In this document: positions 9,001 through 61,468 of the stretch, piece by piece
Layout: the number at the start of each line of letters is the position of its first letter
Position numbering within the stretch: the stretch's first letter is position 1
From: Candidatus Omnitrophota bacterium
GTDB lineage: Bacteria; Omnitrophota; Gorgyraeia; Zapsychrales; JANLHA01
Reading direction: 5' to 3'
NCBI GenBank assembly: GCA_038222225.1
Contig: JBBRHV010000006.1
Location: forward strand, 1,626-65,625
Length of the DNA stretch: 64,000 nucleotides
Notes under the pieces: model-generated
What the model was told of the DNA's origin: nothing
Seen by the model: only the letters and a program-made list of their open reading frames with translations
Database searches by the model: none
Program-made: the position numbers and the translations under genes

Positions 9001-12000
9001 TCCATCCGGAAATTTGTTCGTTTAACGCCCTTGCTGAAGTTCAGCATCAATTTGGGGAGCTCACCACCATTGTTGTTGTTTATAGACGAGCCGCCGCTCT
9101 TCTTCAAAGGAAGCCGGTTTATGCCTCGCGTGAAAATGATATCATCATTCATTCCGACGGGATTATTTCTCAGGATCAGCTTATTTCGAAAATAAAAGGC
9201 CCTATCGCGCGCCTGTTGGTAACCGGCAATGAATTTGAAAGCTGTGTTGCCCGGGCTGTTTTTTCCATCAGAGAATTTATGCGGGATCAATATTCTGCCG
9301 GGTTTGTCTTGGATGTTCATTTTCCGATGGATTTGATCGTTGCCAATCGTCATGACTATCGCGATGGGGGATATCAAAAGATGATCGCGAATATAAAAGG
9401 CGGGGACTTTTTCTACAGCTATAAATTTCAAGCCCGTCGGATTGCCTATGACATCTATGATGGAACCGAACTGATCTGCCCTTGTGGGGAGGGAAGCGAA
9501 AATATTTCCAATCTTTATGTATGGCCATCTTTACAGAGCATGAAAGATGAATTAAGCCGAGGAACCGGCGGGACCAACGGGGCTGTTCTTGAATCAGGAG
9601 AGGGCGGCGCCTACAAGGAATTGATTTGTCGGTTTGACATGAAAGAAGATTATGAGGCGGATGATTGGAAGGAATCACGGGTTCTTAAGCGCGTGGCACT
9701 TATGAAACAGATCAGGTTGGGTTGGAAATATCCTCAGATGGGAGAACCGTCGGAACAATGGCTCAATGAGCTGAGAGAACTCGTTCTTCATCGTCTTTGG
9801 ACAAAGCTTCAAAAAGCACATCGTGGAGACATGTTTTTCCCTCAAGACATGGTTTCTCTCAATCGGTCGCTGAATCAGCCGTTTGTTTTTATCGTCGATG
9901 AACTTTTAAAGAACGCCCTTGATGCCCAGGCCTTGGCAGGGCAAAGCGGAAATGTCCATCTTGCGAGATCGTTGCAAGGCGGAACATTCGTGATGGCGGT
10001 TTCTGATAACGGAATCGGCGTCCGTCGCCCATTCTTAGGCTCAGAGCAGCTGGCTTGTATTGAGTCTTTGGCAGATCAGCAGAAGAGACGTAATACTCGT
10101 TTGGAAGCAAGTGATGGGGCTGGATTGATCTGGGTTCAGTATCTGGTCGCCATGCGGGGAGGTAAGCTTGAAGTCGAATCTCCCGGTCGCAATGAAGCCA
10201 GGACTACGGTTGTTGTGTCCTTGCCGGCGGATGCGTTAACGGTCATTGACAAGACGGGCTTAGGTTCTCAGACAAATGCTGCAGTCCTTCAAAAGAGAGA
10301 AGATGTCGCTACGCGGTTTATTTTTAGGTTAGCTGATCATTATGGTCTTTCTTCCACTTGTGATCCGCAGGAGATCCTTCAGGTTCTTCGTGCCAGGGGA
10401 ATCTTGAGTTCAGGGGAAGAAAGGGCGTTTGTCAGATATAGAAAAATTTTAAAACAGATGTATCCGGAGCTGAGCCTTGGGCAGGCTGAAGCACGCTGGA
10501 CGGAGGGCTACACATTTTTCGGGAATAATTCTTCTGAGGATTGGGAGCTTTCCGGACTGACGGAAGATTTTACGGTCATGGTTAAGAAACACATCGAAGG
10601 GATCCGGGCCGTTGAACACACCGATCATCCTGCGGATCAGGGCTGGTGGAAGGAAGATGGGCTGAAAATAAGAGTGATCCGGATTACGGATAGTCTTGAT
10701 TTAAAGGCGGCGTTACCGAACGAAAAAACAGAAAACCTGCCGCTGTCATCTGATGATGAAAACGGTTCACTGCACCTCTTTGAGTTTTTGTTCAAGAAGA
10801 TCTTTATTGAGCCAAAATATTTTGGCCTGGTAGCTTTCAAAGAAGGAAGGCCTGTTGGTGTATATGGGGTTTTTGTTTTAAATGATTGGAGAACGATCTC
10901 TGGGCGCGGATTATATGTCGTTCCATGGGAAAGGTATAAGAAAACAAATATCGGGTGGATGCTGGTCTCAAGGATGGCGGAATTGTTCGCGCTCAATGGC
11001 TATAAGTATCTTTATATCCCTGTGGCCAACCGTCCGTCGGCGCAGAAATTTTTTGAGAACGTGTCGGACAATACTGGACGCTTCCAGTTTTTCACAGAAA
11101 CAAAACGGAACGATGACGGAAAAATTCAAAAGGTTGCTGTGAAGCTGCAGGAAAGGTTCACTCCGGTTCAATGGGACATTGATCTTAAGCGTCAGATCGG
11201 CCAAGTCAACAGCGCGGTATTAAATACGAGCCTGTTGCAGCAGGTCCAAAATATGGAGGCAATGTTTAAAGCCTATGAATCGATTCTTAGTGACCATGGC
11301 CGACAGATACACGAGAGAGTTCGAGTGGTTTTAAGAGCAGCTTCTCAAGGCGTGATGAATGCAGAGCAGCAAAAAGAAGTTCGGGCGCTCGTGGCGTTGA
11401 TGCCTGATCCGCAGCATATTGATATTGAATCCGGCGGAGAAAAGAATTGGATCCGTTGGTTTGATTTAAGCCCGGAAAGACTGGGCGCATCTTTAGATCA
11501 AAGCATTGCCGATGGATGTGCGTGGCCGTGCCTGCATTGTGCGGCGTACAATGGCCATGCCAAAACAGTGATGGAGCCGCTTCCTGTTGTGATCGCAAAA
11601 ATTTTAAGCAGAACACAAACGGATATTATTTATCCATTCCAGTTCGATCTGATTTCTTGGCGGGATCTTTTCTTTGGAGTCGGCATTTCGGGATTAGCAG
11701 AGTTTATATCACGGTATAACCCGCAATATCAATTACGGTCATTGCCGACACGAGGTTGGGATAGCGATGATGCCTTTGTTCAGAACGAAGCCCTGCATCT
11801 TGCGCAGCTTAAAATCGCTAGTGGTATGTTCATTCTTTCATTCCATCTGTGCCATCAGCGGTATGACATCTTGCCGGCTATTGCGCAGGCGGTCAGGAAC
11901 GGAGACCGTGCAGAACTCGATGCACTGATCGATGTTTATGCAGCACGTTATGCGAATGTGATCGCTACGTTAAGTCCTGCGCTTGATCGGGTCAGCGTAT

Positions 12001-15000
12001 TTTTACCCGGAGATGTATACGCTCCCGTCTTTGAAGAGGCGACGATCCGGGCATTGAAAAAAGTGTTGAGCATCTTAAACGCTTCGCATGAAGAGATCAA
12101 GCCGCTTGTTGGTGAGATCAGTCATGGGGTCCTTGGGATCCGGGATATGAGATTTTTAAACATCGGCGGAAGGCAGATTTCGTTTATTTCTCGAACGATC
12201 CAACACGACGGCCGCGGGCGTGACTTTTTGGGACGATTGTGCATGGCTGAAAGCGGGGATTTGAACGGCAGGAAGGCGAATATGAATTTGCTTCGCATGG
12301 TCAAAGAACATGGCCGTCCGTATCCGGTTTCTGTCCTGTTTGCCTCTGGACGAACGATTGTCCAAACGCCGCAAGTCAACAGCGCGGTGCTTTTGACCGA
12401 ACCGCTGAGAAAAATGTTCCGCGCATTGAAACCGTGGCTGGTTATCGGCGCCGTTGCTGCCTGGGTGGGTTTTGAAAGAATGAATGCGAATCTCTTTTCT
12501 GGCCCTGAAGGGGGCGCGCATGAGAAATGGATCTTTCTCGACCTTGTTTTAGCCGCCGGTGTTATTGAAGAAATTCAATACAGGTTTGGCGTGTACAGGC
12601 ATGTCTTGAGGCCTTATTTCGGCGTTGTGCTGTCAGTCATCATCAGTTCTTTAGTTTTTGTGGCGGTCCATCTGATCTTTGCGGATGGGACCTTGATCGG
12701 TTTAATATATGTCCTGTTGTTTGGTGTAATTTCTGCCTTGATTTATGAAACCAGCGGCAAGCTGCGCTACGCTATTCTTCTGCACATGATCTCGAACTTG
12801 ATTTGGATCGGCATGAGCGCCGGTCCGTTTGCATATTTTATATTCACGGTCTCGCTTATGGCGCTGATGAAATTAAGCTTTGTTCTATTTATCTTCTATC
12901 ATACGGTCATCGCTGGCGTTAATGAGAGAGGAATCAAGGCCTTTGAACGTTTTGGAAAAACTGATTCGATTGATGAATGGTTAGGTCAAAAAGTTATCAG
13001 ACCGGCGGTGGCTGTGATTAAAAGCCGATGGGCAAAACTTGGCATGAATAAAATGTGGCGAGCAAAAAGCCCGGATGGAAAAGAACATCGCCGCATATAT
13101 GCTTTGGCATTCACAATCAGTGGATTGATCCTGACCTTGCAGTTTGCCGGAGACAGGATGTTCAGATTGTTCTATCCGGTCTCGCCAAGACCTTTGATCA
13201 CTCAAGAAGAGATGCGACAGAACATTCAGCGGGAGAGGGATAAGTTTGAAGCAGCAAAACGTGCCGCCCTCGCACAGACGCCAGGACTCACCACCAATGA
13301 TATTTTTGGTGTGATGTATTCTTACAAAGCGGATCTTTCATTGATCCGGGTTGTTTTATTCCATGACGGTCGCGCATACAGCGTGGAGGTGACATCGTCA
13401 GGTGAGACAATTGTCGATCCGGTAGCGTTATCATGCTACGAGGGCATTCTTACGCTGTTATTTTCCGACGGGCATATGGACAGACATCGTGAACTTCCTT
13501 TAAACGAACGGACTTGGAATGAAGTTGAAGCTTGGAAAAATAGATTGCCTCAAAAACCTGCACCTAAAGTACGGTCGAAACAGGGCGCGCAAAATTCATA
13601 TCATAAATTCAATACAGCGAGTTTGTACAAAGGGGTCAACAGCGCGGTGTTGTTGGGTTACTCGGATAAAGAAGCGTGGAACAAAGAGTCCGGGTTTTTG
13701 CTGGATACATTTTTTACATTTGAGCAGTATGTCGCGGCGGCTTTATATGATCCGGCCTGGGGATTTTATGGCAGTGGGAAGATCAAACTAGGGTTTGATT
13801 TCGGAACCATGCCGATCGCGCTGTCGCCGTTTTTCGGAGAGAAGGTCGCTGAGCGTGTGTACGAGATGTATATCGGCATGCTGAAAGCCGGTACCATCAG
13901 GCCGGATGAGCCGTTTTACATGATCGAGTTTGGGGCGGGAACCGGCGTGTTGGCAAGGGACGTACTGGCATTCTTTAGAGAACAAGCTAAACGCGGACGG
14001 GTTTATAAACGATTCTATGACAATTTGCATTATGTGATCAGCGACCGATCTAGCCCGCTGCTGGAAAAACAAAAGCAGAAGAATGCGGAGTTCTTGGAGG
14101 AAGGCAAGATCCAGTTTGTGATCGGCGATGCTCAAGAGCTTGAAACATTCTTGGAGAAAGAGCGTCCGATCAAGGGAGTTGTATTCTCCAATGAGCTTTT
14201 GGATGCCTTCCCGTCCCATAAAGTTTACATGGATGAACAGGGAGTGGCACATGCCATGGTCTCGATACCGGCTCTTGTCGATCAGCACAGTCCTGATCTC
14301 AGGCCTGGCAGCAGAGGCCGCCTATCGTCAACGATCAGCTTGTTGGCGCAAGTCGGAAAGGTGCTTAAGGCCCACGGGCTTTCGCTTGAAACATTAACTC
14401 AAAAAAGCCGTGAGTTCGCAGGGCGGTCGAATGTAGTCAAACAGATGGTGGATGATGGGGCCGTTGTTTTAAGTCGGGAGGATTTCTGCCGTATCCAGGA
14501 AATTTTCTCCGGTGAGAAAGTCAGTATGTATCGCGAGCTTATCCACAGGGTTATGGCGTTCTCTGAGATGACGGTTCCCGCGGCGCTGGTGCCCGGTTTA
14601 AAGGAATATTTAGATTTCCACAAAGATGAAATGAGGACGGCCCTTCAGGGAGAGTCAGGATGCGCAGTTGTCTCTTCCGGGTGGCTTTCGTTTGCAAAGC
14701 ATGTTTCCGGTTTGATCGATCAGGGATATGTCTTTACGATCGATTATGGAGAGACTACGGCGACATTGTTGAGCGCCAGGCGCAGAGAGAATTTTCCGAT
14801 TTCGATCTATCATCGACGTTTGGGAAGAGAGCGCAATCCTTATCTTCACCCTGGTGATGTGGACATATCGGTTGCGCCGGATTTCACGGTCTTTGCCCAG
14901 GCGGGGCTTGTTCATGGCTTGGTTCCGGTTTATCACGGGGAGCTCCGGTTCTTGCAGGCAGATTCAACCGAAAGGATTGACTCCGCGCAAACCGCTTCAC

Positions 15001-21000: not shown

Positions 21001-24000
21001 CGACAAGCGCCAGTGTTCTAAATGGAGAAAGCCAGGAAAGTGCGGACTTTGGCGAGGATCAAGATTTATCTCAGATTCTGTTGATGGCCCAAAGGGACCT
21101 CCGGTCTGGGAACCTTTCGCGGTTTGCCGGGATCAATGCTGAAAATCATAAAGAGCGATTATCAGGATTTATTTCTGAGAGCATTCTTCAGAATGAGCGT
21201 TTTGCGCAGGTCATCGGCCTCTTGTCATTTATTTCTGATAATCAGGCTAGGTCTGCTTATGGCTATTCGCCGATTTGTGAACATATGAGTCAGGCGGTTG
21301 CGGTTGAGACGGCAATAAAAGAATTCCAGGTATTAGGCTTGGCGGGCTGGAAGGTCGATTCGAGAGTTTTGACCGGTGTCAAGGATTGGTGGCCCATCGG
21401 TTCTCATCATTCAGCCGCGATCGTTGTGATCGGGGATATTCGTTTCTTTGTCGATATGACATTTCCTGTTCTCATCGAAAGCAATTCAGATTATGCGGAT
21501 TTAAGCAAGCCTCATGGGCTTGTGATGATCCCTGAACAAGTTTTGATCGAACATCCTTCGTTCCTTCAGCTTTATCAGACAGGGATCGCCAGATCCATGG
21601 ATTGCGGATTTTCTGAAATCAAGGGCGTCCAAAGGGAGGATTTAAAATTGACCATGCGGCTCCTTTCTTTAGACGAATTTTCTGATGTGATCGAAACTAT
21701 TCCCGATGATTTTGTCGCTGAACGCTACTCCAAAGAAGAGAGAGCTGCTTTACCAGCCCAAATTGAGAGCCAGGCACTCAAGATCTATTGTTTCTATCTT
21801 CCTCGGGCGGTTTCTCAGGGAGTCCTGGCAAAAGGAGTCGGCATGGTTTTTGTCCGCCAGGAGGGAACGGGCCGTCGCGAGATCGATTTCTTTTTCTTGC
21901 GATGCAGCCTCACTTATATGGGATTTGGGCCGGAAATGATTAGGCGCGTTTTGAGAGAACTTCGCAAAGGAACATCAGGCGTGAAGGAAGTTGGAATAAG
22001 CTCCGGGTTCTTGAAGATGCTTCCGGAAGACAACGGGTCTTCAAAACGGGCAAGGCTTTCGAGAAAGTTCTTTTGCTATCTGGGATTTGAAGGTGATCCG
22101 TTGACGTTGCGTTTGCAAACTTCCGAGGAAAAAAACAAGGTCCCCTCCGCAGCGACAAATGCTTCGGTCATTTTGGATGGAAAAACCTTGAGCGAACAGA
22201 AACCGCTAACGGTTGAAGAATCGTGGCAGCTATTCGCCAGAAAGTTGGAGAAGGGGGCGCGTACGAATAGTCATTCTGGATTGGAAGACAATCCGGTCAT
22301 GTCGCATTTTAACGAGACGAAAAAAAGGAACGCGAATAATTCCTTTGAAACAAATGCGTCCATTCTTCTGGAATGGAGATTGAGGAAAATCATGCAGCCG
22401 TTTTTTGAAGGCGGATATTACGTCGAGAAGCAGGGGGATTCACGTCATGAAATGTTTCTGCGCGTGTGCCATCCGGAGCCAGAGAGACAGGGCGTGTTTC
22501 GTGGTGAAGACAAGACCCGCGCTTTCTGGGTTCAAGCGAGGGAAGATGAGTTTGAGGTCAACTGGGTCTTTCCGGATCTTCCGCCTGGCAAAGGTCTGGG
22601 GCGTGCTTTCATGGCCAGTGCACTTTTATTGCAGGATGGTTTTTGTGGAGGAAAGAAAAAGTTTATTATTGAAGACACAAAAATCTGGTTGTGCCGCAGC
22701 TTCAGAAAGCTTCCCGGATTCGGGATTTTTTATTGGGCGAAAACGTTTCAGTTTGTTGCGTTGCTGTTTTGGTTGGCGGGCCGCCGGGATGTTCTGAAAT
22801 ACAGGCTGACCGGGCGCGTACCCGAGGTTTCAGCGAAATTTAAAGCCTGGCTGCATGAAAGAAATGAACACAACAAGGGCAAGGCTGTAGGGACAGAGCT
22901 TCGAACGACCAATGCCGCGGTGTTGGGCCGTTGGGTGCATGCGTTCGAAGAGGGGTGGGGGCGTGCGGCGAAAACAACCTTGAGCAGGGTTGCTGATGAA
23001 TCGCTTGCATGGAAAAGAAAAATTAATGAGTGGGTCTCTTGGCTGAAAATTTGCCTGCACGTGACGGACCGCAGTGATCGAGTGGTTGCGGCACAGCAAC
23101 AGGATATCCAGATTATTGGAAACAATTTCGGTACGGAGCAACACCCAGCCCGCGTCGGATCGGTAGTTCATATGTCCAGTTCGCATGAACAGGACCCGGG
23201 ACTACCGGTCTGGCGCACATATTTCGAAGGAAAACTCAGCGGCGGGGTAAACGCGGCTGTGCTTGTCCCTGATCGCATGGGCAAGACGTCGGCGGACTAT
23301 TTTGATGAACTTGTCGCGCAGTTTAATGATCAAAACAATGAAGTTTGGCAGAGATTTCGTGCTTCTGTTGAAGCGAACCCCGATCAGTACGATTCAGTTT
23401 GGTTGAAAGTTTTGAAGCAGGCGCGTGCATTAGAGGTTGAAACACAGAAGCAGGTTCAAGAACCCGTGAAGATATTTTTATCGCTGGATTCCGTCTTGAT
23501 CGTTCCTGAAGATGGAAGCATGACCGGTCCTTTATTGCCGTTGGCGCCGGATTCGGAAGCAACGCATCATTTGCCTGCCCTGCCTGTGGTGCCGGAAGCA
23601 ATTCTTTTATTCATTTTCGTTTTGAGCCGCAAAAGACAAGGCCGCGGGGGGAAAGGCAGGGAGTACAGTTTAGCTGCATTCGTTGAGAGCATGCAGAGCC
23701 GATGGAAGGCCGTGAAACGTGCTGGTTTTACGGGCAAAGATTTCTTTGGAAAACGCCATGTCTATAATCTCACGTTGCGGTCTTCGTGTCGGAATTTTGC
23801 GTCAACAGGGTTGAGTGATCCGTCCGTAAAGTTTGCAGGAGAAAGTAACGCATCAGTTCTGAAGGATGCAAAGAATCGTGAGAAGCGTGACAGTTTCAGA
23901 AGTGGACGGCGGTCTCTTTCTGTCGTGTTCACCGTTCTTGGAGTTGCGATCGTTTTGTTTATCGCGCAGACAGCTTTGGCAGGATTGGAAAGGGCGGCCT

Positions 24001-36000: not shown

Positions 36001-39000
36001 CAGCGCAAGACAAGGGTCTTCTGAACAATGAGGACCTGAGGCGCGCAGCCGTGGCCATGGAAGGTTTGCCTGGCATTATTCTGGATGAGGGGTCGTATAT
36101 GCAAAGCGATTTAAAGAAAGCAAGCGAGTTTGATTTTGTGATGGCTGACCGTATGGTTGAAGAATTCCGGCTGAGATTGGGGAATCCCGGGGTAACCCTG
36201 GTGGCGGAATCGTTAAATTGTGACGAGGAGGATCCAGACCATCAGACGGGGTTGATCATCGCTGCTGTGATGGACCATCCTGCCATTACCAGGGTGCTGG
36301 ATTATAATTCGATGAGTCCTTTTGTAAGACATGGTGGATTCTTGATCACCGACGGACAACAGAGAAATTCGGTGCCGTTATTTGACGGTGTGCAGGAGAT
36401 TGTGTTGGTCGGCGGGAATTTAAGCGCGTGTCTTAAGACGCAGCTTTTTATATGGTTATTCGCCTTGCGGCATGAGTTTGAACAGGGGGTTGTATCGGGT
36501 AACTGGGTCTTTCATATTCCTTCGGGCGCAGTGTTTGATGTTAACGAACAGATGACGGGTAATGAATTTTTAAGGAGAACGGATGGCGTGCGGAAAACAT
36601 TTTTAAAAGAGTTTTCCATTTTAAACGAAGGGTTTGCGGCAGATCGTTTCGGGTTGATTCGCGTGTATAGACAAGAAAAGTTTTCAGTGACTTTAAGGCT
36701 GTGGAAAAATTTTGAAGATTTTATGAGGCGATTGGATTCTGTGAAGAGGATGGCCCGCTTGGGTACGTCTAACTCCTCCGTATTGAAGCCGATGGCCGTT
36801 GGGATTGGCGTGCATGACGGAAGCCACATGAGTGAGGCGGCGGCGAAACGTACATGGGCGGCGCTTGAAAACGGAGAGCGCGTGAAGTTTGCCGATATAA
36901 GGGATCATGTTTTACCGGGGATGATTGATCCGATTGCTCAAAGCCTTTTGCGGGATGAAAGGGTTTGGATCTTTGTTCCGGATGTTATGGCGGGAGAGCG
37001 CGGTCCGCCGGTGCTGTGGTTTGATTCTTCTGAATATTTTGTTGTTTCAGCTATTTTAAATCAGCAAATCATTATTCCTGTCGGGCTTTTGGACCATCCT
37101 TCCCTGATCGAAATTTTGCGTTTTGAAATGGTGAATGTTATTTCTGGTGAAGAAGACGTCGCGCAGGGAGCTCTTTTGGCACAAAGTGTTTTGCGGTCTG
37201 TTCTCATGGTGATCAATAAGGGAAAAGAAGTAAAAAATAAGTCGAAAAAAGACCATGCTGCTGAAGAGATCAATTCTGCCGTTTTGAGCGGAAAGGACAA
37301 AGAATACCGTGTGATTTTTGAAGGCAACAAAACAACGATCCGTGGTGAAGAGGGATATTGGGTCCATGTTCAAGTTTTGATTGATATGGGGGAGATTCCC
37401 GCCGAAGGCAAGACGATTCGCAACGGGGACCGCTGGCAGCAGGAAACGTCCGAAGAAGTCTTTGGACAGGGAAAAATTATTGCGGTTCAGGGTGATTATT
37501 TAAAGGCCGAATTTGGGACCAAAGGAATGCGGCAGTTCAATTGGAGGGTGGCGGATATTGAGATTTTTGTTTCATTGAAGAGCCTTTTGTTTAAAAAAAT
37601 CCGCGACTCCGAGGAGGAAAAAAATAGGGCTTTTGCCGAAATTCAGAGGGGCGAGCTAGCCGGGTTGATAGACTCGGCGCTGCGTTGCGGGTATCGATTG
37701 CAGGATTTAGCCCGGGAAGCGGTTATATCCCCCAGTTATATAACAGGTATCGTGAAGGGGAGGATGCAGCCATCGACAGACGTTATCCGTAGGCTTGTTG
37801 CTGCAACAAAGAAGGCCATGGCCCATCCAAAAATGATTGGGCGAAAAAAGGGCGGGATGTTGATTAGCGCAGAAGAACGCCAAAGGATAGTAGCTCGTCT
37901 GCAAGCGCTTATTCAAAGAGGGTTCTTGCCTGCCCGGATCGCGGAAGAAGCGAAAATTTCTTTAGCACTTCTTTCACGCGTGCTTAATAACGGATGGGGG
38001 TTGGGTACCCATGCTCATGAAAAAGTGATGAGTGCTGTTGAGAAGATGGAGAAACAAAAACCGAATCTTGATCAGATAAGGGATGTCTTAGTCAAGATTT
38101 TAAACAGCGGTTATTCATTTGTTGAAGTGGGAGAAGTGGTCGGAGTGAGTGACATAAAACTGAGGCGCATCTACAAAGGAGAAACCGGTTTTGCTGTTGA
38201 CGAAAAAGAACTGTTAAATAAACTTCGGATTTTGAGCGGGCAGCCACATCCGAATGCTGTTTTAGGGAAAGCATTGTACCGGTTAGCCGTCCTTTTGGGT
38301 TCGCAAAAACGTGTGGCACAAATCTGCGCAGAGAACACGTTTGTCATCAGCAAACTCATCCGCGGTTCAGGCGGGGTTAAAGCCGATAAACGGAAAAATT
38401 TATACGCCTGCATTGTGCGCGCGTTACCAAAGATCGCAACGTGTTTGACTCTGGAATTGTCCGGTAAAGGGCTTGGTTCTTTAGCTGGGTCCATGGCAGA
38501 GGTCTTGCGCAACAGATCAGGCGCCGTGCGCTTGTTTACCGATGTGGACTATTTGACCTTTAACGCAGCCCGGATCCACGAGTTCCTGGCGGTTGAGAAT
38601 GTTCTACTTGAGCTGACGCAAAACATTTTCCTCAAGAAAGCGCGCGAATGGATCGATGAACAAGGTGTACATGTCATTTATCATGTTGTCCCTCAAGATC
38701 AGGCTGACTTAAATGGAAGAAACAAACCGTTAACGTTATCGAAGGTCCAGGGTGAACGTGATTGGATTGGCGCGGAGTTTTTTGACGAGCGTTCAGGACA
38801 TGCCGTCAATTCCTCTGTTTTGAATGCCGTTCACTCAGATATGTGGGTCAGGGTGAAGAATACAGTCCCGGCTCTGGAGCAGATGAAGCAGATGTTTGAT
38901 GCAGATCAAGATTTGCTCACAGAAGAAGGAGTGAGAGTGGAGAGAGACGTCCGCGACACGTTGATGGCGTTGCGCTCTTCTTTGAGAAACGAATGGGCTT

Positions 39001-42000
39001 TGGCGTTCGCGGAAGATCTTGTTGCCCTCATGCCGGATCCTGAACACTTTGATGAAACGGGTGAGTGGATGACGTGGTTTAAGCCTCATGCATTTAATGG
39101 GAAATTCACCCTTGAAGCATGGGGTCTCGGGCAGGAGTTCATCGATCGGTTGAACAAGGTGCGCGGGGCAGACACGAGCAAAATCAACAGCGTCGGGGTT
39201 AATTCGTCTATTTTTGGTCATTTATTCGGGGCAAAGAAAGAAGCGGCAGACATTGATTCTACGGAGGTCAGACAGGAGATAACAGAGTGTGATTTTGATC
39301 AGGCCGTGCGCGGAGTTCGACGCCTGGTTAATGAAACGCCGACAAATGAAATTGCAAAAGTTCTTTACGGCCTGCTTCAGTATGAGGAGGACTATTTGTA
39401 TTATCAGATTGTTCGTTATGAGGCTGCCAAGAGAATAGCCAAGGCATCGGTGGAGGAATATGAAGATCTGAAACAGTTGATCAGCACATTGCGGATGCTC
39501 GGGAAGATGATTGAAGATCGCCAAAAATTGTTTGAGGAAACAGGGGAAACGAACGTTGACTTTTATTTATTAGCCCTTCGACAGTCTCGACAGAAGTTAG
39601 CAAGATTATTCCGTTTTCATATTCGGGGGTATGAGAATCTTGACCGGGTCGTTCAACGGTTGGACAGCGACACGGTGGAGTATTTATTTTCGTTCTTCAG
39701 CAGGGCATCAGTTCAAGAATTCACCAGCTTAGATGAGCTCATGCAGATCATGACATTTGTCCGGCGGCGCACTTCTTTGGTGGATGAAGATCTGTTGGCG
39801 CGCGCCAAAGAAAGCCTTGAACGGATCATGGTGGAATGGGTTTGTGAAGTCGGCGGAGAAAAGGATCCTGATCTAAGGAGCCAAGAAGTCAGGAATATTC
39901 TAGAATACATTACACAGCATGATCGGACATTCCGTCAGAAATTGAAAGAAGGCATCAAGAGGGCCATTGGTTTCTTAGCCCGTCAAATCAGAAAGAGTCA
40001 AGATGACGCAAGGGAGGCGCAAAACTTGGCAGATAAGAAGGCCGTTGAAGGACGGCAAAACACACTGATTGATTTAAGCGTGAGTTATTCGGCGCTGATG
40101 ACAGCAGTGGATGATGAGTCAGGAGACGGAAATCTTGATGGAAACAATTTATGGGAAAGCCAAGACAGCCAACAGACAGATAAAAAATCAAACAATGATT
40201 TGGGTGCAAATGCTTCTGTATTGATGGGAAGAGAAAATTACAGGCATCTTAAAAAAAGATTTGATGATACAAACGCGGCGCTATTGATTGGAAGAAGTGA
40301 CAGGTCACAGACAAACAAGGAAATAAGGGCGAAGAGGCTCATTCAGGGGTCGATTTTAAATGCGTTTCTCTTTTGTCTTCCTGCTTTGGTCATTGCGGTG
40401 ATCGCTGTTGTGACTTGGGGGCCAAGCTGGAAGATATTTGTGGCGGTCTGGGTTATTCTGGCGTTAACACGGTTTGCAATGTCCATGCGCCATATTCCCG
40501 ATATTTGGAGAACATTGCAGGGCTTAGGTACGCCAACGAAGGGCGGCATCATTGAATTGGCTAAGGCCACTAAGACCAAGATGGAAAGGAAAGCTGTGGC
40601 GCGTGAGCAAGCCCGCAAGAAAGCGATTCATCAGGCCAAGGCTGCTATGGGCAGGGTTTCTCCCAAGAGTTATGCCATACAAGAGGAGTATAGCACCGAG
40701 GTGGGCCGAAAGATCCCGGCGGAACTTAGAAACGACGAAGAAATTGTTGAGCAATATGAAAAATTGACAGCCCGTGCGGAAGAATTTTTTGCGCGCAAAG
40801 TACGTTCACAAAAACCGAAAGAGACTGCGCCGCAGCATATTCCTGAGGTGGCACCAATACCGATAGAGCCTGTCCAAAGACAGGAAGCGCCTGAGGCGCG
40901 CGAAATGGCCAGAAAACGGTTCATTCGTCGACAGCTGGCTGAGGCGCGCCGTTATATTGAAAAGCTGGACAGCCGCGGGTTTATGAGCGCGCATGAGTTT
41001 TTGAACGCCGCCGAAACGTTTAAACCGGAGTGCGTTAAAACATATCCGGATGATGCTCAGGTGAAGGATTTTCTGACGTGGTTTGATTGTGCAGTTCAGG
41101 CTGTGGCACAACAGGTCGCGGATAATGTTCGGCGCATGGAATTTGAGGAGCGCAAAAAGGAACTGCTGGCATCATGGCGAATGATGGTTGAGAAATTGGA
41201 AAGAGCCCGGCAACGGCTGGATCAGGCTATGGCGGCAAGGATTTCCAAAGACCGCGCTTCGTTGGCAGAGTTGCAGAGAAGGATGGATCAACAGGTCGCG
41301 GATAATGTTCGGCGTATGGAATTTGAGGAGTGCAAAAAGGAACTGCTGGCATCATGGCGAATGATGGCTGAGAGATTGGAAAGAGTTCGGCAGCGGCTGG
41401 ATCAGGCTATGGCGGCAAGGATTTCCAAAGACCGCTCTGCGTTAAGTGAGTTGCAGGTAAGGATGGATCATCTGGCAGCGACCATAGAACAGCTTCGTCA
41501 GGCAAAAGATGTTTTGCGCGCGTTGACTTTGCCATCCGCGACCGCCGGTGAGGATGATTTGCGATCCGCGATTTTACAGGTGCTTCCCGTTGAAGTCAGA
41601 GAAGACCCGCGCTTGGCGCTTTTTATCGAACAGGCCAGGTTGCGGTTGTATGAACACGCTGTGACGCGGGTTTTGGATATTTTGTCTCAGTCTTCAGTTG
41701 ACCCCAGAACTTTTGATGACAGCGAGGCCTTCCGCCAGGCATGGATTGCGAAAGTGCCGGTATGGATGCAGGAGGATCAACGTATCATTGCAGCCCTTGA
41801 AGAGCGTATTGATCAAGGCCTTTTGGTAATAACCGAACAGGAGAAAAAGTCTGCTCAAGTTAAAAGGGAACAGGCATTAGAAAAAAGAGCGACTATTGGG
41901 GAACTTTATACCGCCTTAGGAAAAAATGATTTTGGAACGGCACTGACGAAAGCCTTTAAGTTGCGCACATTGGTTGCTGATATGCCGGTAGAGGATTGGT

Positions 42001-45000
42001 TGGAATTTCTTGAGATGTTTGTTGTGCAGGCAGCTCAGAGAATCGAACAATTACGTCGGGAAAAAAGGCATAAAGAGGCCGAACATGCCATCCAAGGAAT
42101 GCGTAGGCTTTTGGACAAGACCCCGCTGGCGGAAACTTTCAAGCAAATGCTAGGAGACATTGACCGCCGTTTGCAAGAAACACAACATAGAACGCCGGTT
42201 TCCGAGCGTATCCAAGAAGGAGCAAATGGCAATGAAACAAATTCTGCTATCGCGCATGGGACTGACAATGCAGATAATACGGGCAATGTACCGGATGAGG
42301 TAGGAGCAAGGCTTAGTGCTGAGGTCTGGCTGGATGTGGCGCATTTGGATGCGGAGGCGGTCAATGGGGTTTTGAGATTTAAGGGGAACGATGGCTCTGG
42401 ATTGACGTCTTTGACTTTGACAGACCTTCCGGTGAGTGCCGCTCTGGATCAATTATGGTTTTTGTGGTTTAAATGGAAGAATGACAGAGAAGCATTTTAT
42501 CGTGATTGGCTTTCTCATCTCCGAAACATTCCTTTATCGTTTTCTCACTTAAAACAAGAAGACAATTTAAAACAAGCTGTGCTCAGTAAAGGGCGCATGG
42601 CTTTTGCGATTCATGTGGCTGCCAATATGCGTTCTGACCGTTGTTTGTACGAACGATTAGAGGCAGCCGCGAGATCAGGAGCGCATACGGTGCTTGTCGT
42701 TTCCGGCGGAGGCCTTTATCAGAAAATTTTACGAAGAGTACCGTTTGGACGGTATGTGTTCCGTGATGGATCTTTGAAATTGATTCACATGTGGGCCAGT
42801 TTGTCGCGTGAGGGAAAGGTCCCTCCGGGTGTGAGGATCGCCGTTGCGCTTAATTCGAATTATATCGGCTCGAAGGCAAAGCGCGAAGCGGTTCGTTTGG
42901 TAAAGAAAGTGAAGTTGGCTCAAGAATTGGGCATTCCGCTTTCTCAGATCGAAATTCATACCATGGCTCCTTTGACCGGGTTTGAGTGGGTTGACGGTAT
43001 CGGGCTTTGGAACTTGCGCCATGTGGATGCGATCGCGTTTTTCAGGGACATCTTATTACCAGTTTTAGCAAAAAATGGAATTGGTACTAAAGAGTTAACC
43101 GTTCGTTTTGGTGTGGCCCATGTGATGAATGCAACAAACTATGCATTTTGGGTGTATTTGGCTGGCCGATCCGTCGATGAAAAGAGTGCGGGCCGGGCGT
43201 ATGACACTTGGCGAAAGCATTCACGTGCTGATCAACTGGCAAAAGCATGGTGGAGAGTTCAGTATGAAGTCAATAAGCGGATTCAGGAGCAGGCGTCTTT
43301 TGGTCACGTCGCATTGATCTTTCAGCCGGCGGCAAAGAAGGCGGGGGATGCGGTTATCCGTTGCGCGTCTTTTGTGCAAAGTGTGAATAGCGCGGTTTTA
43401 AAGACAGCAAGACAAAACGGGCTTATCAGCGATTCAATCATTATTCAGGAATTAGGTTTTATGCGCAGGATGTTTACGGCCTATGAGGGAATATTAAGTG
43501 AACAAGGCCGCAGAGCCATACAGAATATCAGTGAATTCATGAGTAGTCTTCAAAGAGGCTCGGCGGGGGATGATGTTCGCCGGAAAGCCGTCGAGTGGAT
43601 CTATAAAATGCCGGAACCGTTGCAGTTGAATATGGAAGACGAATGGCTGACGTGGTTTGATCACAAGAAAATCCAGTTGTTCCCTTATGGTTTAGGGGGC
43701 GGGTGCACGGAGCCTTGCTTGCATTGTTTTTGGGGGAATCCTGTTCCAGTGGCGAATCTAAATCCTCTTCCTGCCGTATTTCTCGGCGCGAAAAACAGCA
43801 AACGAGAAGTTCTTACGTGCGGACATTTTGATGATCTGGAATGGTATGACCCCTTATTCGGAATTGGGCTAGACAGCATTGTGAAGTATTATTTGAATTC
43901 AAATCCACGGCAAAGGTTAAGTCTTTTGACTCGCGGTTGGGAAAAAGAACATGCAAGAAAACAACAGGTTGTTGAGAACATTGTTCGTATTGTATCCGGC
44001 GCTGATTATAACTTTGAATTTGGAGTTTCCTTTAATCTTGCTCAGTCTGGAAAATATGATCTCGCTAAGGCGATTCAAAGTGGAAGGCTGGAGTCTGTTT
44101 TAGAACTGTATGCTCAGCGTCATCAACACATTTTAAGGACGCTTCGAGGCTTGTCGAAGATCCGATACGTGGTTCGTCCGCTTCTGCAGGAGCGGGAGTT
44201 GGATCATCCCACAGAGAAATTGCTTGGCATGGTCTTGCGCAAAGCTGAGGTTGCGGCTGCGGACGTGAGAAGGGCGGAGGCGACCGTCATTGGAAGCAAT
44301 AGAAACAGCCGAATCCCCTGGGGCCCAGGAACGCTCACGATCGAATGTGATCAATGCATCAATGAGACCGGTTCCGGCGGTGAGTTTATTCGAAGCATTG
44401 ACTCGGCGATTCGCGGAGAAGATTTTGTGCGAAGTTCCTACGGGCACATATATAGAGAAGGCATGCCGTGCGCTCAAATACACGGTGCTACAAATGAGAT
44501 CGTTGTTGTTCTTCCCAGCGGAAAGCGGGTGATGCGAGGACCGATAAGCGATTTTCCGATGAGGACGGTAAGGCAAAAGGGCGCTGCTCAAGGTGGCAAC
44601 TCTGCAATTTTAGCTGAGAAATTCAGTGATTGCGTTGATATCGATTTTGAGAGGATGTTACAAGACCGGAAAAAGAAGTTCTCCTCCAGTTGGCCGCATC
44701 TTGATTTTACAAATCGCATTTTGATTCCGTTTCCTCTGCCAATGTTGCGGGTGTACGGAAAAGAACCATTTCATGACGAAGATATTCAGCGCGTTATTTA
44801 TGAGCTTTTAACCAATGCTCACGATGAGGCGCCGGCCGGGCTGATCAGAGTGAATTTTGAATTGGGAAGCATTGATTCGCAGAACGGCCTAAGTCTTTTT
44901 ACGATCCAGATCGAAAATGAGCGCACCGGAGAGATCCCGTTTGATCAGATGTTTCGGTTCCTGTTGGGACAGGCAATCACCGGGAATCTGTGGCGTAATA

Positions 45001-48000
45001 AGACGACGGATCAGCCGGTCATTGAACGGATCCAGAACCGTTGGGAAGTTGGGGAATTGGAAAACATGCCGGACATTTACGAGCGCGTACCTGACCGTCT
45101 TCAGGCCCTTGCGCTGGCCCACCGCTATGTTCGTCAATATGGGCTTAAGTCGATCCTCTTTCTTGAAGGAGTCGGTCGAAGAAAAAGTAGAGAGAGAAAC
45201 GAGATCGGCGGAGTGGGCGTGGGACTTTATAACAGCCGGTATACCATCAATCGATTAGGGGGAAAGATTGATCTTGATGATACGCGCTCGGGCCGGACCA
45301 CGTTCGCGATCGGATTTTTTGTCCGGGAATTTTCATTGAGGCAAAAAGGATCGGATGCGTTTGTTAGCGGTGCTAACTCTGCGGTTTTTAGGGGATCGAA
45401 GGATTCTTCTCTTGATTCTCTGCTTGAGAGCATCATGGCGTCCCACAAAGAGAGCGGGGTGCGATCAACGCCTTGGGCTGCAAGGATGGACAAGCCGCTT
45501 GACCGCACAGGATTCAACGGGCCGCACCTTTTCGCGAATATTGAATTAACGAACGAGCAGGTTCGGTTGTTCCTTATCCTTAAAGAGCATAAACAGGCGC
45601 TCCTCAATTTACTTGGTGAAAGCTTCAGAGCTGTATTTGGGAAAGCGGCAGGGATCCTTCTTAATCAAAATGTTTCTGGATTTAAGGCAACACAGGTCGA
45701 TGAACAGTATTTAACTTGTACCGTTGGTGATCTTTTTATTCCAGCCATCGAAAATGCTTTTGATGCCTATATGAAAAAGAGCGGCCAATCATCCGATGTT
45801 CCGTTGGTTCTTGAATTTTATATTTCCTTTGATGGCCGGGTGATGATTGCGGAGATGCGCACCAATGGTCTGTCGTATGATTCCGGTGAGACCGCGACCT
45901 CCGAAAAGAAAAAGGACTCGGATCAATTGGGTGGAAAAGGGCGCGGACTGAAAGCCATTGATGAATTTGCTGCATGCATCGGCGGGATCCAGTGGGATAT
46001 CCGAAACCGTAAAGATCTTTTTCCTGAGGATGCGGAAGGATCTGTTTTTTATGTATCTCTTCAACGGGATAAGCTTTCTCAAATCGTCAGTCATGCGGCG
46101 AAGTTTTTTGGTCTGGGTTCGTGCGCGACATGCCCAGAGGATAGCGTCAGAAGAAATGCCGACGCAACGAGCAAGAATAGTGGAGCGAATTCTGCAGTCT
46201 TGAACGGAAACACGGATGATTCGACGGGAAGTGATTCTCAAAAGAAGCGCTTGGAAGATTTCTTGAGCATGGCTAAAAATTCACAGTTGGAGGCGTTTTG
46301 GTTAATTCATGAATTAAAATTGGATCAAATTGAGCGGGCCGTTTCCGTTGGCAGCGGCGTGCTTGCGTTGGCGCCGTTTGAAATGATTTTAATCGAAAGC
46401 GGTGTTGTGGTTACGATTTTTGATCCCGATCCAAACGTTCAGGAAAATTGGGCGCAGTATAAAGCGCGAAGGCTTAATGGCCATTGTGTTGACCTTGTAC
46501 CGTTATCCAGATCAAAATTTGGAAGTTCAGCACAGCCGATCCAGGGTGCGCAGATGTATATTACGATGAATGTTTTTGGTCGTTCGGGCATTCCTATGAC
46601 AGAACGTGCACAAATGTTAGGCCTCTTAGCGAAAAGTTTTAAAAACGGGGACTTTCTTTTGAATGGATGGTGCAGTCCGCTGGCGTTTGAATTGATTGCA
46701 AATTCGCCGGCACCCCAAGAGGATGTCAGGGTCGAGACCGCGCTCAATCACGAGCATATGCTGGCCTTGGTGAATCTTTTGGAATCGCGGCATATGATGT
46801 TGGAGCCTGTCCGTTTCGGCAGGAAGGAGGACGTTCTTCATCAGAGGGACTTTTATCGAATTATTCCGCTCGGATCACCGGTGATGCCGGTAGCTGATAA
46901 AAATCGAAAAAAGAAGGGTGAGCGCCAGCCTGGAAAGAGGATGTCCGAAGATAAAGGCGCCAATGCTGCTGTTTCGCAAAATAATGAAGGCGTTCCGGCG
47001 GATGATCGAGGGATCGATTGGAAAGGATTAAGGGCAGGGCTTGAGCAGGGAAGTTCCTTGTCGTTCGGCAAGGTCAAGCAGCTGATCCGGGCAGGGAACA
47101 AGAAGGTGTTTGGTCTGCTGCAATCTGTCGTCGCCGGCCACAGCAAACAAGAGGCTGCGGTTTGGCATTTTATTTTGACGGTGGATCTTGATCGGGAATA
47201 TTCAGCCCATTTGGGTTCGAACATGAGAAATTTGAAAATGGCTGTTATCCGGGCCGCGCAAAAGGATCTTGAAAAAGGCGGTGTGCCCGGGTCCGATCTT
47301 CTGGAGCAGTCTGTGTCCTATGGTGATGAAGATTCTTTGAGCGCTCTTCAAAGGGTGGCCTTCGGTGTCAGCAAAGGGAAATTCCTTGCGATCAGAGTAA
47401 TCTTTGAGGCGCAAAAGGAAAAGAGTCCGGCGTCTCCGCAAATACGGGCTGTTTGCCGGGGATTTTTGAACACGATCGCCTATAAATTAGGCGAAGGGAT
47501 CGAGAGGGATCCAGAAACGGGGTTACTCATACTTGGAGCGCTTGTTTTTGAGATGCCTTGTGAACCGATAGGGGAAGGGGCCCGCGGGATATTAAAAAAT
47601 ATCGTCGATGGGAAGTGCCGGTTGACTAAAGAGAAAAGGATTGAGGCGTTGAATTCTTTGGTGGAATGCGTTCGTGACGGAGGCTCTGTCGATTTGCTGG
47701 AGTGGATTTTGAAGGGCGTGGCCGCGCTTGACGGCAAAGGCTTCCCGCGTCTCAATAGCTGGAGCGTTCAAGAGATGCTGGGTTCGCTTTTCCACAATGT
47801 TTCGGTGGCGCCAGTATTGCGCTTGTATGCTTATGGACTGATGCCATTGCCGGAAAACGAGACCGAAGCGCTTGTATTAGCTAAACGTGTGTTACATGAA
47901 AAGGCCCATTTGACCTCCTTGGAACTATTTTCAGACAGCGGTGTTTGGCACAATGAAGAGCTTAAGGTTTATATCTTGGCCGTGTATTTGATTATGGTTG

Positions 48001-60409: not shown

Positions 60410-61468
60410 TTAAGGAAGGATCTGCGGGACCGGAAAGTCTTTGTGAAAATGAGGGGAATCTCCCCACTGGTCGTATCCGATCCGTTCTCCGATCGAATCA
60501 ATGCGGTTTTCCAAACATCCCCGGCAGAGCACGGCATTTTCATCCAGGCAGGGCTTATTGTCATAGAGGCGGTAGCTTTTGCGGTATTTGGTCGGCGTCA
60601 TATTCGGCATGATGATATTGGCGCCGGCCTTAAGCCCCAGTTCACGGCCTTCGGGCGACAGGGATTGAAGGGCTGTGGTGGAGGCGATGTTGACATCTTT
60701 CAACAGGATTCGTGTTAAGGCGATCATTTTTAATCCTAATTCCAAATTGTGCGGTCCGTCAAAATTTTTGGCTTCAGACGCCAGCGGCGTATCTTCATGC
60801 ACAATGTAGGGTCCCATTCCGATCATATCCATATTCTGGTTTTTAAAAAACAAAATATCTTCCGCCAGGTCTTCAATGGTTTGAAAGGGCAGCCCGATCA
60901 TGACGCCAGTCCCAACCTGATAGCCGTTTTGGCGTAAAACCTTAAGACATTCAAGACGTTGCGCGAAGTCGTGGCCTTCAGGGTGGATTTTTTGATAAAG
61001 TTTTTCGTTGGAGGTCTCGATGCGCAAGAGATACCGGTGCGCTCCGGCGGTAAACCAACGGCGCAGGGTGTCTGGGGAGTGCTCTCCCAAAGACAAGGTG
61101 ATGCCCAGGCGTCCTTCGCTCACGCGTTTGATGCCGTGTATAACCCGTTCGATAAAGTTTGTAAAAGCATCATCCTGACGTTCGCCGGACTGAAGGACGA
61201 TGGATCCGTATTTCATCTGGTCCGCTAAATAGGCGGTTTGAACAATTTCATCTTCGGTCATCTGATAGCGTTCAACGCGCTTGTTGCCTTTGCGGATGCC
61301 GCAGTAGAGACAGTCTTTTTGGCAGAGGTTGCTAAGCTCAATGATGCCGCGAAAATACACGATCGGGCCGACGTGCTCACACTTGATCCGGTAGGCCTCT
61401 GCATAGAGTTCTTCCAAGCGGGAAGGGTCGGTTGTTTCAAGCCATTGGATCAGTTCAGTTTTGTTCAT
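60410..61468 (-). CDS. Radical SAM protein of the HydE/BioB/PylB subfamily (probable [FeFe]-hydrogenase maturase HydE-like)
   Basis: CQKDCLYCGIRKGN is a CxxxCxxC radical-SAM motif in the HydE/BioB-like context (SNxCxxDCxYCGxR). Length 352 aa. Start overlaps the mnmA stop by 4 nt, consistent with an operon. Confidence 0.6.
   Translation of the reverse strand: MNKTELIQWLETTDPSRLEELYAEAYRIKCEHVGPIVYFRGIIELSNLCQKDCLYCGIRKGNKRVERYQMTEDEIVQTAYLADQMKYGSIVLQSGERQDDAFTNFIERVIHGIKRVSEGRLGITLSLGEHSPDTLRRWFTAGAHRYLLRIETSNEKLYQKIHPEGHDFAQRLECLKVLRQNGYQVGTGVMIGLPFQTIEDLAEDILFFKNQNMDMIGMGPYIVHEDTPLASEAKNFDGPHNLELGLKMIALTRILLKDVNIASTTALQSLSPEGRELGLKAGANIIMPNMTPTKYRKSYRLYDNKPCLDENAVLCRGCLENRIDSIGERIGYDQWGDSPHFHKDFPVPQILP

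Follow-up and report, generated by a model that had tools for sequence, protein, structure and literature searches.

Paralogous three-cysteine modules in a giant Omnitrophota open reading frame and their probable relation to radical SAM enzymes

A giant ORF divided by a repeated peptide

The window analyzed here, 64,000 nucleotides of a Candidatus Omnitrophota contig (JBBRHV010000006.1), holds a plus-strand ORF of 18,937 aa (positions 78-56891) in which the peptide delimiter x-N-[AS]-[AS]-[VI]-L marks off about 54 modules of protein-like size. The strict form of this delimiter occurs 37 times in the ORF against 0.2 expected, and its codons differ synonymously between copies. The gene-sized units have a median length of 336 aa, and the domains found in the ORF are Rhomboid, APH, Metallophos, TPR, Pkinase, HATPase_c, Rce1-like, Methyltransf_28, GNAT, HPr, PALP, AlaDH, HTH, and SEC-C. 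If Omnitrophota giant proteins are defined as single ORFs of more than 10,000 aa with many enzyme domains, this ORF is one of them. Like the Archaeovorin-type giant multi-enzyme proteins of this phylum (bioRxiv 10.1101/2023.11.21.568195, 10.64898/2026.06.07.730766), it strings together a large number of unrelated enzyme domains, among them HATPase_c, GNAT, methyltransferases, TPR, kinases, and radical SAM. Neither of those two studies reports cleavage sites or a delimiter motif, and the N-[AS]-[AS]-V-L delimiter that is explicit in this ORF is not used by the related giant ORFs we compared. The roughly 54 delimiters that cut the ORF into protein-sized units are more striking than the radical-SAM-like modules described below.

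Two paralogous modules, M1 and M2

Two delimiter-to-delimiter units on the plus strand, M1 (385 aa, 11223-12377) and M2 (399 aa, 43401-44597), had been singled out in the original prediction because they share a W-x-x-WFD motif and a CxxxCxxC cluster. Both motifs are indeed present in both modules, in the single plus-strand reading frame of the ORF, and the predicted module coordinates were off frame by 1-4 nt. Copies of the delimiter, each reading NSAVL on the plus strand, lie directly 5' (11208-11222) and 3' (12378-12392) of M1 and directly 5' of M2 (43386-43400). The proposed descent from one ancestral module is borne out by a similarity that extends far beyond the motifs: BLASTP aligns the two modules over their full length of about 390 aa at E=8e-33 and 25% identity. 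CX3CX2C occurs exactly twice in the 18,937 aa, once per module, where 0.007 occurrences are expected, and none of 2000 shuffled versions of the ORF reached two; WxxWF occurs four times against 0.26 expected. These counts rule out coincidence. Since M1 is closer to homologues of other genomes (33-35% identity) than to M2 (23%), the two are not recent duplicates. They are an old pair of paralogs that go back to a single ancestral unit with a conserved three-cysteine cluster, and M2 is a deep-branching paralog of M1.

The landmarks of M1, all on the plus strand, begin with an N-terminal helical domain (11223-11498) of three helices marked by MF-x-AY-x-x-ILS-x-x-G, LMPDP, and W-x-x-WFD. The last of these reads WIRWFD (11448-11465; family conservation of W79 and F80 at least 90%) and is followed by the CX3CX2C motif CAWPCLHC (11517-11540), whose C99, C103, and C106 do not vary in any of the 26 aligned family sequences. 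The WRDLFFG block (11658-11678; family consensus W-x-D-P-F-F-G, with D148 invariant) lies just past the position aligned to the canonical radical SAM GGE motif. TRGW (11748-11759, strand 3; G178 at least 90% conserved) and SFHL (11838-11849, strand 4; S206, F207, H208, and L209 at least 90% conserved) are positional analogues of 'TNG' and 'S-x-D/S', respectively, and GRGRDF (12210-12227) opens a conserved C-terminal G-x-G-x-[DE]-F-x-x-R-L helix. The M2 counterparts on the same strand are WLTWFD (43644-43661), CTEPCLHC (CX3CX2C, 43704-43727), WYDPLFG (43842-43862), TRGW (43929-43940), SFNL (44028-44039), and the C-terminal motif GSGGEF (44370-44387). The near-invariant Pro of D-P-F-F is missing from M1, and M2 has Asn in place of the near-invariant His of S-F-H-L. 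The predicted C-x3-C-LH-C arrangement is found in both modules; the aromatic residue said to follow it is there in M2 (C-F-W) but not in M1 (C-A-A-Y), and across the family the position after the cysteine cluster is not conserved.

A third W-x-x-WF occurrence, placed by the original prediction near 39060, is the homologous WMTWFK (39066-39083, plus strand), although the module that carries it (module 3, 126 aa, 38823-39200, plus strand) has only the N-terminal domain in common with M1 and M2. It matches the family N-domain at E=1.2e-17, and the shared domain is also recognized by BLASTP at E=3e-12 and by hhalign at 98%; the Fe-S core is absent, and a stretch at 39123-39152 gives a weak co-linear match to the C-terminal G-x-G-x-E-F-I-D-R-L segment. 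Module 3 appears to be a copy that lost its core. A fourth WxxWF(K) at 42456-42473, missed in the original prediction, is not homologous (hhalign probability 0.4%).

A rare and so far unannotated family

An exhaustive HMMER profile search with the M1/M2 family against 1.84 billion representative proteins found 48 relatives (clusters), 23 of them at E<=1e-30, and nearly all 48 combine CX3CX2C with WxxWF. Besides the invariant C99, C103, C106, and D148, the family alignment of 26 sequences is at least 90% conserved at P102, G178, S-F-H-L, Y239, G330, and F335, while the residue before the third cysteine varies (H, Q, F, P, or I). Most members come from Candidatus Omnitrophota, and a few are in MAGs labelled Elusimicrobia, Saganbacteria, and Dehalococcoidales. 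We assign M1 and M2 to a rare, so far unannotated protein family that is too diverged for standard tools. Its unit consists of an N-terminal three-helix domain of about 90 aa that closes on LMPDP...W-x-x-W-F, a core of alternating strands and helices whose first strand leads into the invariant G-C-x2-P-C-x-[HQF]-C loop, and a C-terminal alpha/beta region with the G-x-G-x-[DE]-F-x-x-R-L helix.

Family members are either free-standing genes (350-440 aa) or modules within giant multi-enzyme ORFs; the latter include contig-spanning giant ORFs in Omnitrophota MAGs with homologues of M1/M2. The ends of the stand-alone genes coincide with the module boundaries.

Relation to the radical SAM superfamily

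Direct comparisons gave no support for the radical-SAM identity that the original prediction had proposed. M1, M2, and the family consensus have no match to PF04055 or NCBIfam radical SAM models even at E<=5-10; M1 and M2 have no match in Pfam, in NCBIfam, or among PDB sequences, and the family profile found no radical SAM chain in PDB. With hhalign, the family was compared with MiaB and LipA of E. coli, with an alignment of the MiaB family, and with a canonical radical SAM gene that lies in the window; the probability was about 1-4% throughout, on the Cys loop only. This last gene (60410-61468, minus strand; HydE/BioB-like, cluster CQKDCLYC, GGE-type motif 'QSGE') served as positive control: Pfam detects it readily at E=4.8e-21. 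The gene stands apart from the giant ORF, on the strand opposite to M1 and M2; CX3CX2C is common to both, but there is no detectable similarity past the Cys loop (hhalign 0.9%). The AlphaFold model of M1 (pLDDT 90.9, pTM 0.89) starts its core with a strand-loop(Cys)-helix element, with strand 96-98 directly preceding C99, continues in repeated strand/helix units, and has an all-helical bundle as N-domain. When searched against PDB and BFVD with Foldseek, the 385-aa model found nothing at E<0.001. It is uncommon for a true radical SAM core modelled with such confidence over this length to lack a significant match.

The link to radical SAM enzymes comes from the relatives. A domain found by the M1/M2 profile at E=2e-9, in P0039, matches PF04055 at 31.6 bits (E=2.3e-7), above the gathering threshold of 29.5 bits, from the Cys cluster through HMM position 133. 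P0046 remains below that threshold (24.6 bits, E=3e-5), and matches of P0041, P0042, P0044, P0045, and P0047 (16-20 bits) and of the core members P0004 (16 bits) and P0010 (13 bits) are weak; all of these sub-threshold matches, like that of P0039, begin at HMM position 1-3 and are in register. A bridge group aligns with the core family in hhalign at 99.6% (E=3.5e-24, 238 columns), its members' weak NCBIfam matches are almost all to radical SAM families, and radical SAM enzymes make up about 15 of the top 20 weak matches of its profile in PDB. Among the weak Foldseek matches of M1 in PDB and BFVD, lipoyl synthase, TM_1862, and phage radical SAM proteins recur (TM <=0.43 on target length). Membership by PF04055 is transitive only, because the homologue P0039 passes whereas M1, M2, and the consensus do not. 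The radical SAM superfamily is the sole one to which any of the evidence points, and the relatives support membership indirectly.

Most of the weak radical SAM matches are anchored on the Cys loop, and the top Foldseek matches also include acetate kinase, SGNH esterases, and terminase nucleases at similar, non-significant E-values. Both would be expected of an unrelated alpha/beta fold in which zinc or some other metal is bound by C-x3-C-x2-C, possibly joined by the frequent His, with a convergent likeness driven by the short Cys motif. We consider this quite improbable. The PF04055 matches of P0039, P0046, and P0004 run 95-143 HMM positions past the Cys loop, and the bridge profile aligns with HydE in register over 91 residues that cover the cluster, helix 1, strand 2 (GED-P vs s-D-P), helix 2, and strand 3. 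In addition, the His is replaced by Q, F, P, or I in other members and cannot be a fixed fourth ligand, and no alternative family recurs in any search.

Compared with the radical SAM superfamily (PF04055; nearest weak matches MiaB/RimO methylthiotransferases, HydE, and lipoyl synthase), the family likewise places its CX3CX2C loop directly after a strand, has H, Q, or F before the third Cys, and has a predicted secondary structure that alternates strand and helix. Its conserved blocks follow the cluster at roughly canonical spacing, with acidic/D-P, T-R-G, and S-F-H about 45, 75, and 105 aa after it, respectively. The family differs in its N-terminal W-x-x-W-F helical domain and C-terminal G-x-G-x-[DE]-F-x-x-R-L region, which it alone has, and in being devoid of TRAM, UPF0004, SPASM, and B12 accessory domains. 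The downstream site where a glycine-rich SAM-binding motif had been sought, the GGE position, is not glycine-rich: it reads F-Q-F-D in M1, H-F-D-D in M2, x-N-[DE] in the family, and S-G-E or G-D-P in bridge members. The glycines are gone, and the acidic residue is mostly retained.

The loss of the GGE glycines, the unrecognizable state of the other SAM-contact motifs, and the lack of a direct profile or fold match to canonical enzymes, down to a consensus invisible to PF04055, would also suit a radical-SAM-derived protein that is no longer a radical enzyme. Such a protein would have lost SAM binding and cleavage, and its Cys3-ligated Fe-S cluster would be structural, redox-sensing, or electron-transferring. 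That outcome seems rather unlikely to us, as H, Q, or F stays before the third Cys, an acidic residue is mostly kept at the 'E' of GGE, and the D-P, T-R-G, and S-F-H blocks keep canonical spacing. Because these motif residues and the block spacing are kept, the core looks like a conserved active site and not only a cluster-binding loop. We favor a remodelled enzyme that is probably [4Fe-4S]- and SAM-dependent, with a core best explained as a radical SAM domain that has been strongly altered. The three cysteines would ligate a [4Fe-4S] cluster, S-adenosylmethionine would bind at its free iron, and reduction of this putative cluster would yield a 5'-deoxyadenosyl radical that acts on the substrate.

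Genomic context and candidate substrates

The original prediction further raised the possibility that M1 and M2 are maturases acting on sibling modules, which would make them RiPP-type radical SAM enzymes that modify modules or peptides of the same giant polyprotein. The modules do sit in a polyprotein-like ORF with peptide delimiters, and the module after M1 (to 13637) is an Rce1-like/CPBP intramembrane protease; proteases of the CPBP type are in some cases linked to bacteriocin systems. Among the weak NCBIfam matches of the bridge members, one is to PoyD epimerases. The in-ORF neighbours of the two modules differ, however (GNAT and CPBP for M1, an unannotated module and HATPase_c for M2), and no SPASM/twitch Cys-rich extension is found: no family member has a PF13186-type match, and the family has no conserved Cys beyond the triad save a frequent one in 'GD-x-x-C-L' that M1 and M2 lack. 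Pfam likewise gives no RRE/PqqD match in the modules, and no match of any kind for the N-domain. Stand-alone copies lie amid varied housekeeping genes (MutS, PheRS, ArgRS, PriA, RsfS, Dus), and none of the five stand-alone loci with flanking genes has a conserved partner or a precursor-like small gene. A maturase role is therefore highly improbable. The housekeeping context of the stand-alone copies and the lack of a conserved neighbour suggest instead that the remodelled enzyme acts on a general cellular substrate and not on a dedicated peptide precursor.

Implications for giant Omnitrophota proteins

The family forms a compact set of 48 clusters left blank by standard annotation, for which a remodelled radical SAM core with an invariant Cys triad and a new N-terminal domain is a testable assignment. 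M1 (11223-12377) or the stand-alone P0012 provides construct boundaries for biochemistry. For radical SAM enzymology the value is modest, one more divergent subfamily. A 2026 catalogue found PF04055 in 90 of 916 long proteins (10.64898/2026.06.07.730766); the Pfam model of the giant-protein catalogues does not see the M1/M2 family.

That one family is found as ordinary genes and also inside giant Omnitrophota ORFs shows directly that such ORFs are built from whole-protein-equivalent units. The N-[AS]-[AS]-V-L delimiters may be the points at which the modules are released. More tentatively, the ORF could encode a true bacterial polyprotein, in which a lineage-specific x-N-[AS]-[AS]-V-L cassette is the processing site between about 54 fused gene-sized units, many with free-standing homologues, and from which M1 and M2 are freed to work in the cytoplasm as separate Fe-S enzymes; these would belong to a new radical-SAM-derived family that has a W-x-x-W-F domain of its own at the N terminus. 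Both the delimiters and the module boundaries bear directly on whether giant bacterial proteins are processed or function as a single chain, and, if true, the polyprotein reading would give Omnitrophota giant proteins the cleavage points that the literature calls missing.

Two Cys-cluster modules and a core-less relative in one giant reading frame

The host open reading frame (78-56891, + strand) runs stop-free for 18,937 aa and contains all coordinates of the original prediction. Within it lie two in-frame modules, M1 (11223-12377, 385 aa) and M2 (43401-44597, 399 aa), each of which is an exact unit between consecutive copies of a delimiter peptide, x-N-[AS]-[AS]-[VI]-L. BLASTP aligns the two modules end to end (25% identity, 47% positives, E=8e-33), confirming the proposal of two paralogous modules that share W-x-x-WFD and CxxxCxxC motifs. 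CX3CX2C occurs only twice in the host ORF, at 11517-11540 and 43704-43727 (0.007 expected), a number reached in none of 2000 shuffles. The W-x-x-W-F motif count is four (0.26 expected), all on the + strand: 11448 in M1, 43644 in M2, 39066 and 42456.

The predicted third W-x-x-W-F site, at 39066, is also real. Its module (module 3; 38823-39200, + strand, 126 aa) shares the ~75-aa N-terminal domain of the family (BLASTP E=3e-12, hhalign 98%, hmmsearch E=1.2e-17), lacks the entire Cys-cluster core, and has a weak, co-linear match (E=0.002) to the C-terminal family motif G-x-G-x-[DE]-F-x-x-R-L, here G-x-G-x-E-F-I-D-R-L. Since both the N-domain and the weak C-terminal segment are present, module 3 looks like a family member from which the whole Fe-S core has been deleted, and it could be a copy in decay or a unit that is core-less by design. 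The occurrence of the W-x-x-W-F domain on its own in module 3 suggests that this domain is an autonomous accessory unit. The fourth site, absent from the original prediction, is a W-x-x-W-F-K sequence (WFLWFK) at 42456-42473 (+) in the module that directly precedes M2 and is non-homologous to the family N-domain (hhalign 0.4%).

No relevant match to M1, M2 or module 3 was found in Pfam, NCBIfam, PADLOC or PDB sequences, and the Ank_4 and thymidylate-synthase matches from their annotation were set aside as noise. A crude hydropathy count, too rough for topology, detected no hydrophobic segments in M1 or M2 and shows both to be soluble.

Family members and conservation

Word-indexed homologue searches for the M1/M2 family found nothing. 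With the M1/M2 profile, an exhaustive HMMER search of 1.84 billion cluster representatives retrieved 48 proteins (E<=1e-30 for 23), which are either stand-alone proteins of 350-440 aa or segments of far longer, mostly partial proteins. The named members are Omnitrophota MAG proteins and one protein binned as Dehalococcoidales. A scan of GTDB species genomes found 8 loci, six of them in Omnitrophota and one each under the labels Elusimicrobia and Saganbacteria, with two copies each in 2 genomes and most copies in contig-spanning open frames; two metagenome scans revealed no close relatives. The family has no Pfam or NCBIfam coverage.

In nearly every member, W-x-x-W-F precedes C-x2-P-C-x-[HQF]-C by ~20 residues. 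In one member (P0040), six 'WVSWF' repeats match at a domain E of about 0.01 and do not make convincing N-domains. In a 26-sequence alignment (A2; M1 numbering), C99, C103, C106, D148, L22 and G26 are invariant, and F15, Y18, P61, W79, F80, G98, P102, P149, G178, S206-F207-H208-L209, Y239, G330 and F335 are at least 90% conserved. The near-invariant Pro149 is Leu in M1, and His208 is Asn in M2.

M1 clusters with P0012, a stand-alone member, and shares 33-35% identity with homologues in other genomes, whereas its identity to M2, a deep branch of the tree, is only 23%. The two modules are old paralogs. The view of M1 and M2 as diverged duplicates of one ancestral module stands as regards paralogy, and a recent duplication within the host ORF does not.

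A link to radical SAM enzymes through divergent members

Direct profile tests of M1 and M2 failed to support the predicted radical-SAM identity. Neither module, nor a family consensus built without the bridge sequence P0039, matched PF04055 or a radical SAM NCBIfam model even at permissive thresholds, and the family profile recovered no radical SAM chain among PDB sequences. The core family gave hhalign probabilities of 1-4%, over the Cys loop only, against E. coli MiaB, E. coli LipA, a MiaB alignment (a search with the E. coli MiaB core yielded no sequence below 77% identity, a range too narrow to build a good profile) and a radical SAM gene in the window. The latter gene (60410-61468, - strand) is canonical and HydE/BioB-like, with PF04055 at E=4.8e-21, a CQKDCLYC cluster and a 'QSGE' motif, and shows no relationship to the M1/M2 family outside the Cys loop. 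It adjoins a MnmA-type tRNA 2-thiouridylase gene (61465-62559, - strand).

Indirect tests, centred on a divergent bridge subgroup (P0039 and P0041-P0047), were positive and mutually consistent. This subgroup is clearly homologous to the core family: hhalign gives 99.6% (E=3.5e-24) over 238 columns that span the N-terminal helices, the Cys loop and the D-P, T-x-G-W, S-x-H-L and Y-x-x-R-Y blocks. P0039 exceeds the Pfam Radical_SAM threshold (31.6 vs 29.5 bits, E=2.3e-7, HMM positions 3-133); P0046 scores 24.6 bits (E=3e-5, HMM 2-143), five other bridge members 16-20 bits, and two W-x-x-W-F-bearing core members 16 and 13 bits. The Cys cluster is where all these matches start (HMM position 1-3), and PF04055 is the only Pfam family matched by more than one member. 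The weak NCBIfam matches of the subgroup are nearly all to radical SAM models, including MiaB/RimO, PoyD, MoaA, CofG, NrdG and ArsS. Radical SAM enzymes make up ~15 of the top 20 sub-significant PDB matches of the bridge profile, and its HydE alignment of 91 residues begins at the cluster, passes strand 2 and helix 2 and reaches into strand 3. Against the four radical SAM comparators the bridge group reached 7-49% probability; phmmer with P0039 found no radical SAM chain in the PDB.

We consider it probable that the M1/M2 family is a remodelled radical-SAM-derived enzyme. We regard an unrelated metal-binding alpha/beta fold as improbable.

Predicted structure and motifs

AlphaFold with M1 and M2 alone (a two-sequence alignment) was unusable (pLDDT 40.7), and alignment A2 gave a confident model (pLDDT 90.9, pTM 0.89). 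The model has a three-helix N-domain (residues 4-58) followed by the W-x-x-W-F turn. A strand at 96-98 runs into the Cys loop, and the chain continues as H120-129, H155-165, E174-176, H184-194, E203-207, H216-250, E254-261 and H268-300 before a C-terminal alpha/beta region.

A check for downstream glycine-rich SAM-binding motifs had been proposed originally. PF04055- and HydE-anchored alignments place the GGE position at S-G-E or G-D-P in the bridge subgroup and at x-N-[DE] in the core family (F-Q-F-D in M1, H-F-D-D in M2). The glycines are gone, and the acidic residue is mostly kept. An Fe-S protein that has lost its radical chemistry would fit the missing glycines, whereas the mostly retained acidic residue speaks against it; we hold such a loss to be possible, if rather unlikely. 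T-R-G-W and S-F-H-L stand where MoaA/SPASM-type enzymes carry their 'TNG' and 'S-x-D' blocks, a comparison that is only a lead. The family alignment contains no further conserved Cys cluster, indicating that a SPASM or twitch domain is absent.

Genomic neighbours and possible function

Stand-alone members sit beside varied housekeeping genes: MutS and PheRS; a PHP protein, FAD oxidoreductase and PriA; RsfS, a CARDB protein and Memo; ArgRS, a class IV aminotransferase and ACPS; FAD-linked oxidase and Dus. No recurring partner or precursor-like small gene occurs beside them, and PADLOC gave no defence link. Inside the host ORF the neighbours differ, M1 being flanked by GNAT and Rce1-like modules and M2 by an uncharacterised module and HATPase_c. 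With such varied neighbours, no recurring partner and no precursor-like gene, the idea of maturases acting on sibling modules is unsupported. A RiPP-like maturase, to which the weak PoyD match of the bridge subgroup might point, appears very unlikely. As a remodelled radical-SAM-derived enzyme, the family would rely on a Cys3-[4Fe-4S] cluster, and probably SAM, to act on what is probably a general cellular substrate.

A delimiter peptide punctuates the host ORF

The delimiter punctuates the host ORF ~54 times (strict matches: 37 vs 0.2 expected; loose: 51 vs 3 expected), for example at 726, 3651, 11208, 12378, 43386, 44598 and 56070 (+). Synonymous codons alternate at its sites (AAT/AAC, GCN/TCN/AGC, GTN, TTG/CTN), which places the signal in the peptide and not in the DNA. 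T, S and G are over-represented in its flanks and hydrophobic residues under-represented. The intervening pieces (median 336 aa) match mutually unrelated Pfam families: Rhomboid, APH, Metallophos, TPR, Pkinase, HATPase_c, Rce1-like, Methyltransf_28, GNAT, HPr, PALP, AlaDH, HTH and SEC-C. The piece at 44598-46187 (+) holds two features, the first a Pfam match (E=7e-8) and the second judged from sequence alone. A coiled-coil-like module (40209-42239) contains a 180-bp tandem duplication (41109-41470, +; two copies, 91% identical) encoding two near-identical 60-aa segments (QQVADNVRRMEFEE...).

In a second paralogous module pair (22911-23846 and 56070-56888, +; 47% identity, E=1e-57), the first copy has an internal 'GGVNAAVL' delimiter at 23250 where the second has 'MAEA' and a gap of six residues, so the delimiter behaves as a discrete cassette open to gain or loss within otherwise co-linear sequence. 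Homologous modules in giant ORFs on four other Omnitrophota MAG and SAG contigs end with S-[ST]-L-D-E-L-D-P, a conserved tail, after which an S-rich linker ('ASSSV', 'SSSP') takes the place of N-[AS]-[AS]-V-L. The delimiter, and inter-module linkers generally, thus appear lineage-specific. 'S-S-L-D-E-L-D-P' was rejected as a general delimiter because stand-alone proteins end in the same tail, which makes it a family-specific C-terminal motif.

The delimiter resembles a signal at which a bacterial polyprotein is processed or cleaved. P0012 has 17 residues before the conserved M-F-x-A-Y, the NSAVL delimiter of M1 starts 18 residues before it, and the two lengths agree (380 and 385 aa), so the module corresponds to a whole protein. 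This supports, and does not prove, a giant ORF processed at its delimiters. The sole recognisable proteases of the host ORF are a Rhomboid intramembrane serine protease domain, the first module (78-725, +), and an Rce1-like/CPBP intramembrane protease directly after M1 (12378-13637, +). Both are processing candidates, with no link between protease specificity and the delimiter.

The architecture agrees with the giant 'multi-enzyme' proteins of Candidatus Omnitrophota (bioRxiv 10.1101/2023.11.21.568195; 10.64898/2026.06.07.730766), for which neither report gives cleavage points or a delimiter motif. Radical SAM domains of such proteins have already been catalogued via PF04055 (bioRxiv 10.64898/2026.06.07.730766). 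The M1/M2 family, outside Pfam and NCBIfam, joins a divergent core to new flanking domains. More surprising than this radical-SAM-like family is the putative delimiter-punctuated polyprotein architecture that surrounds it.
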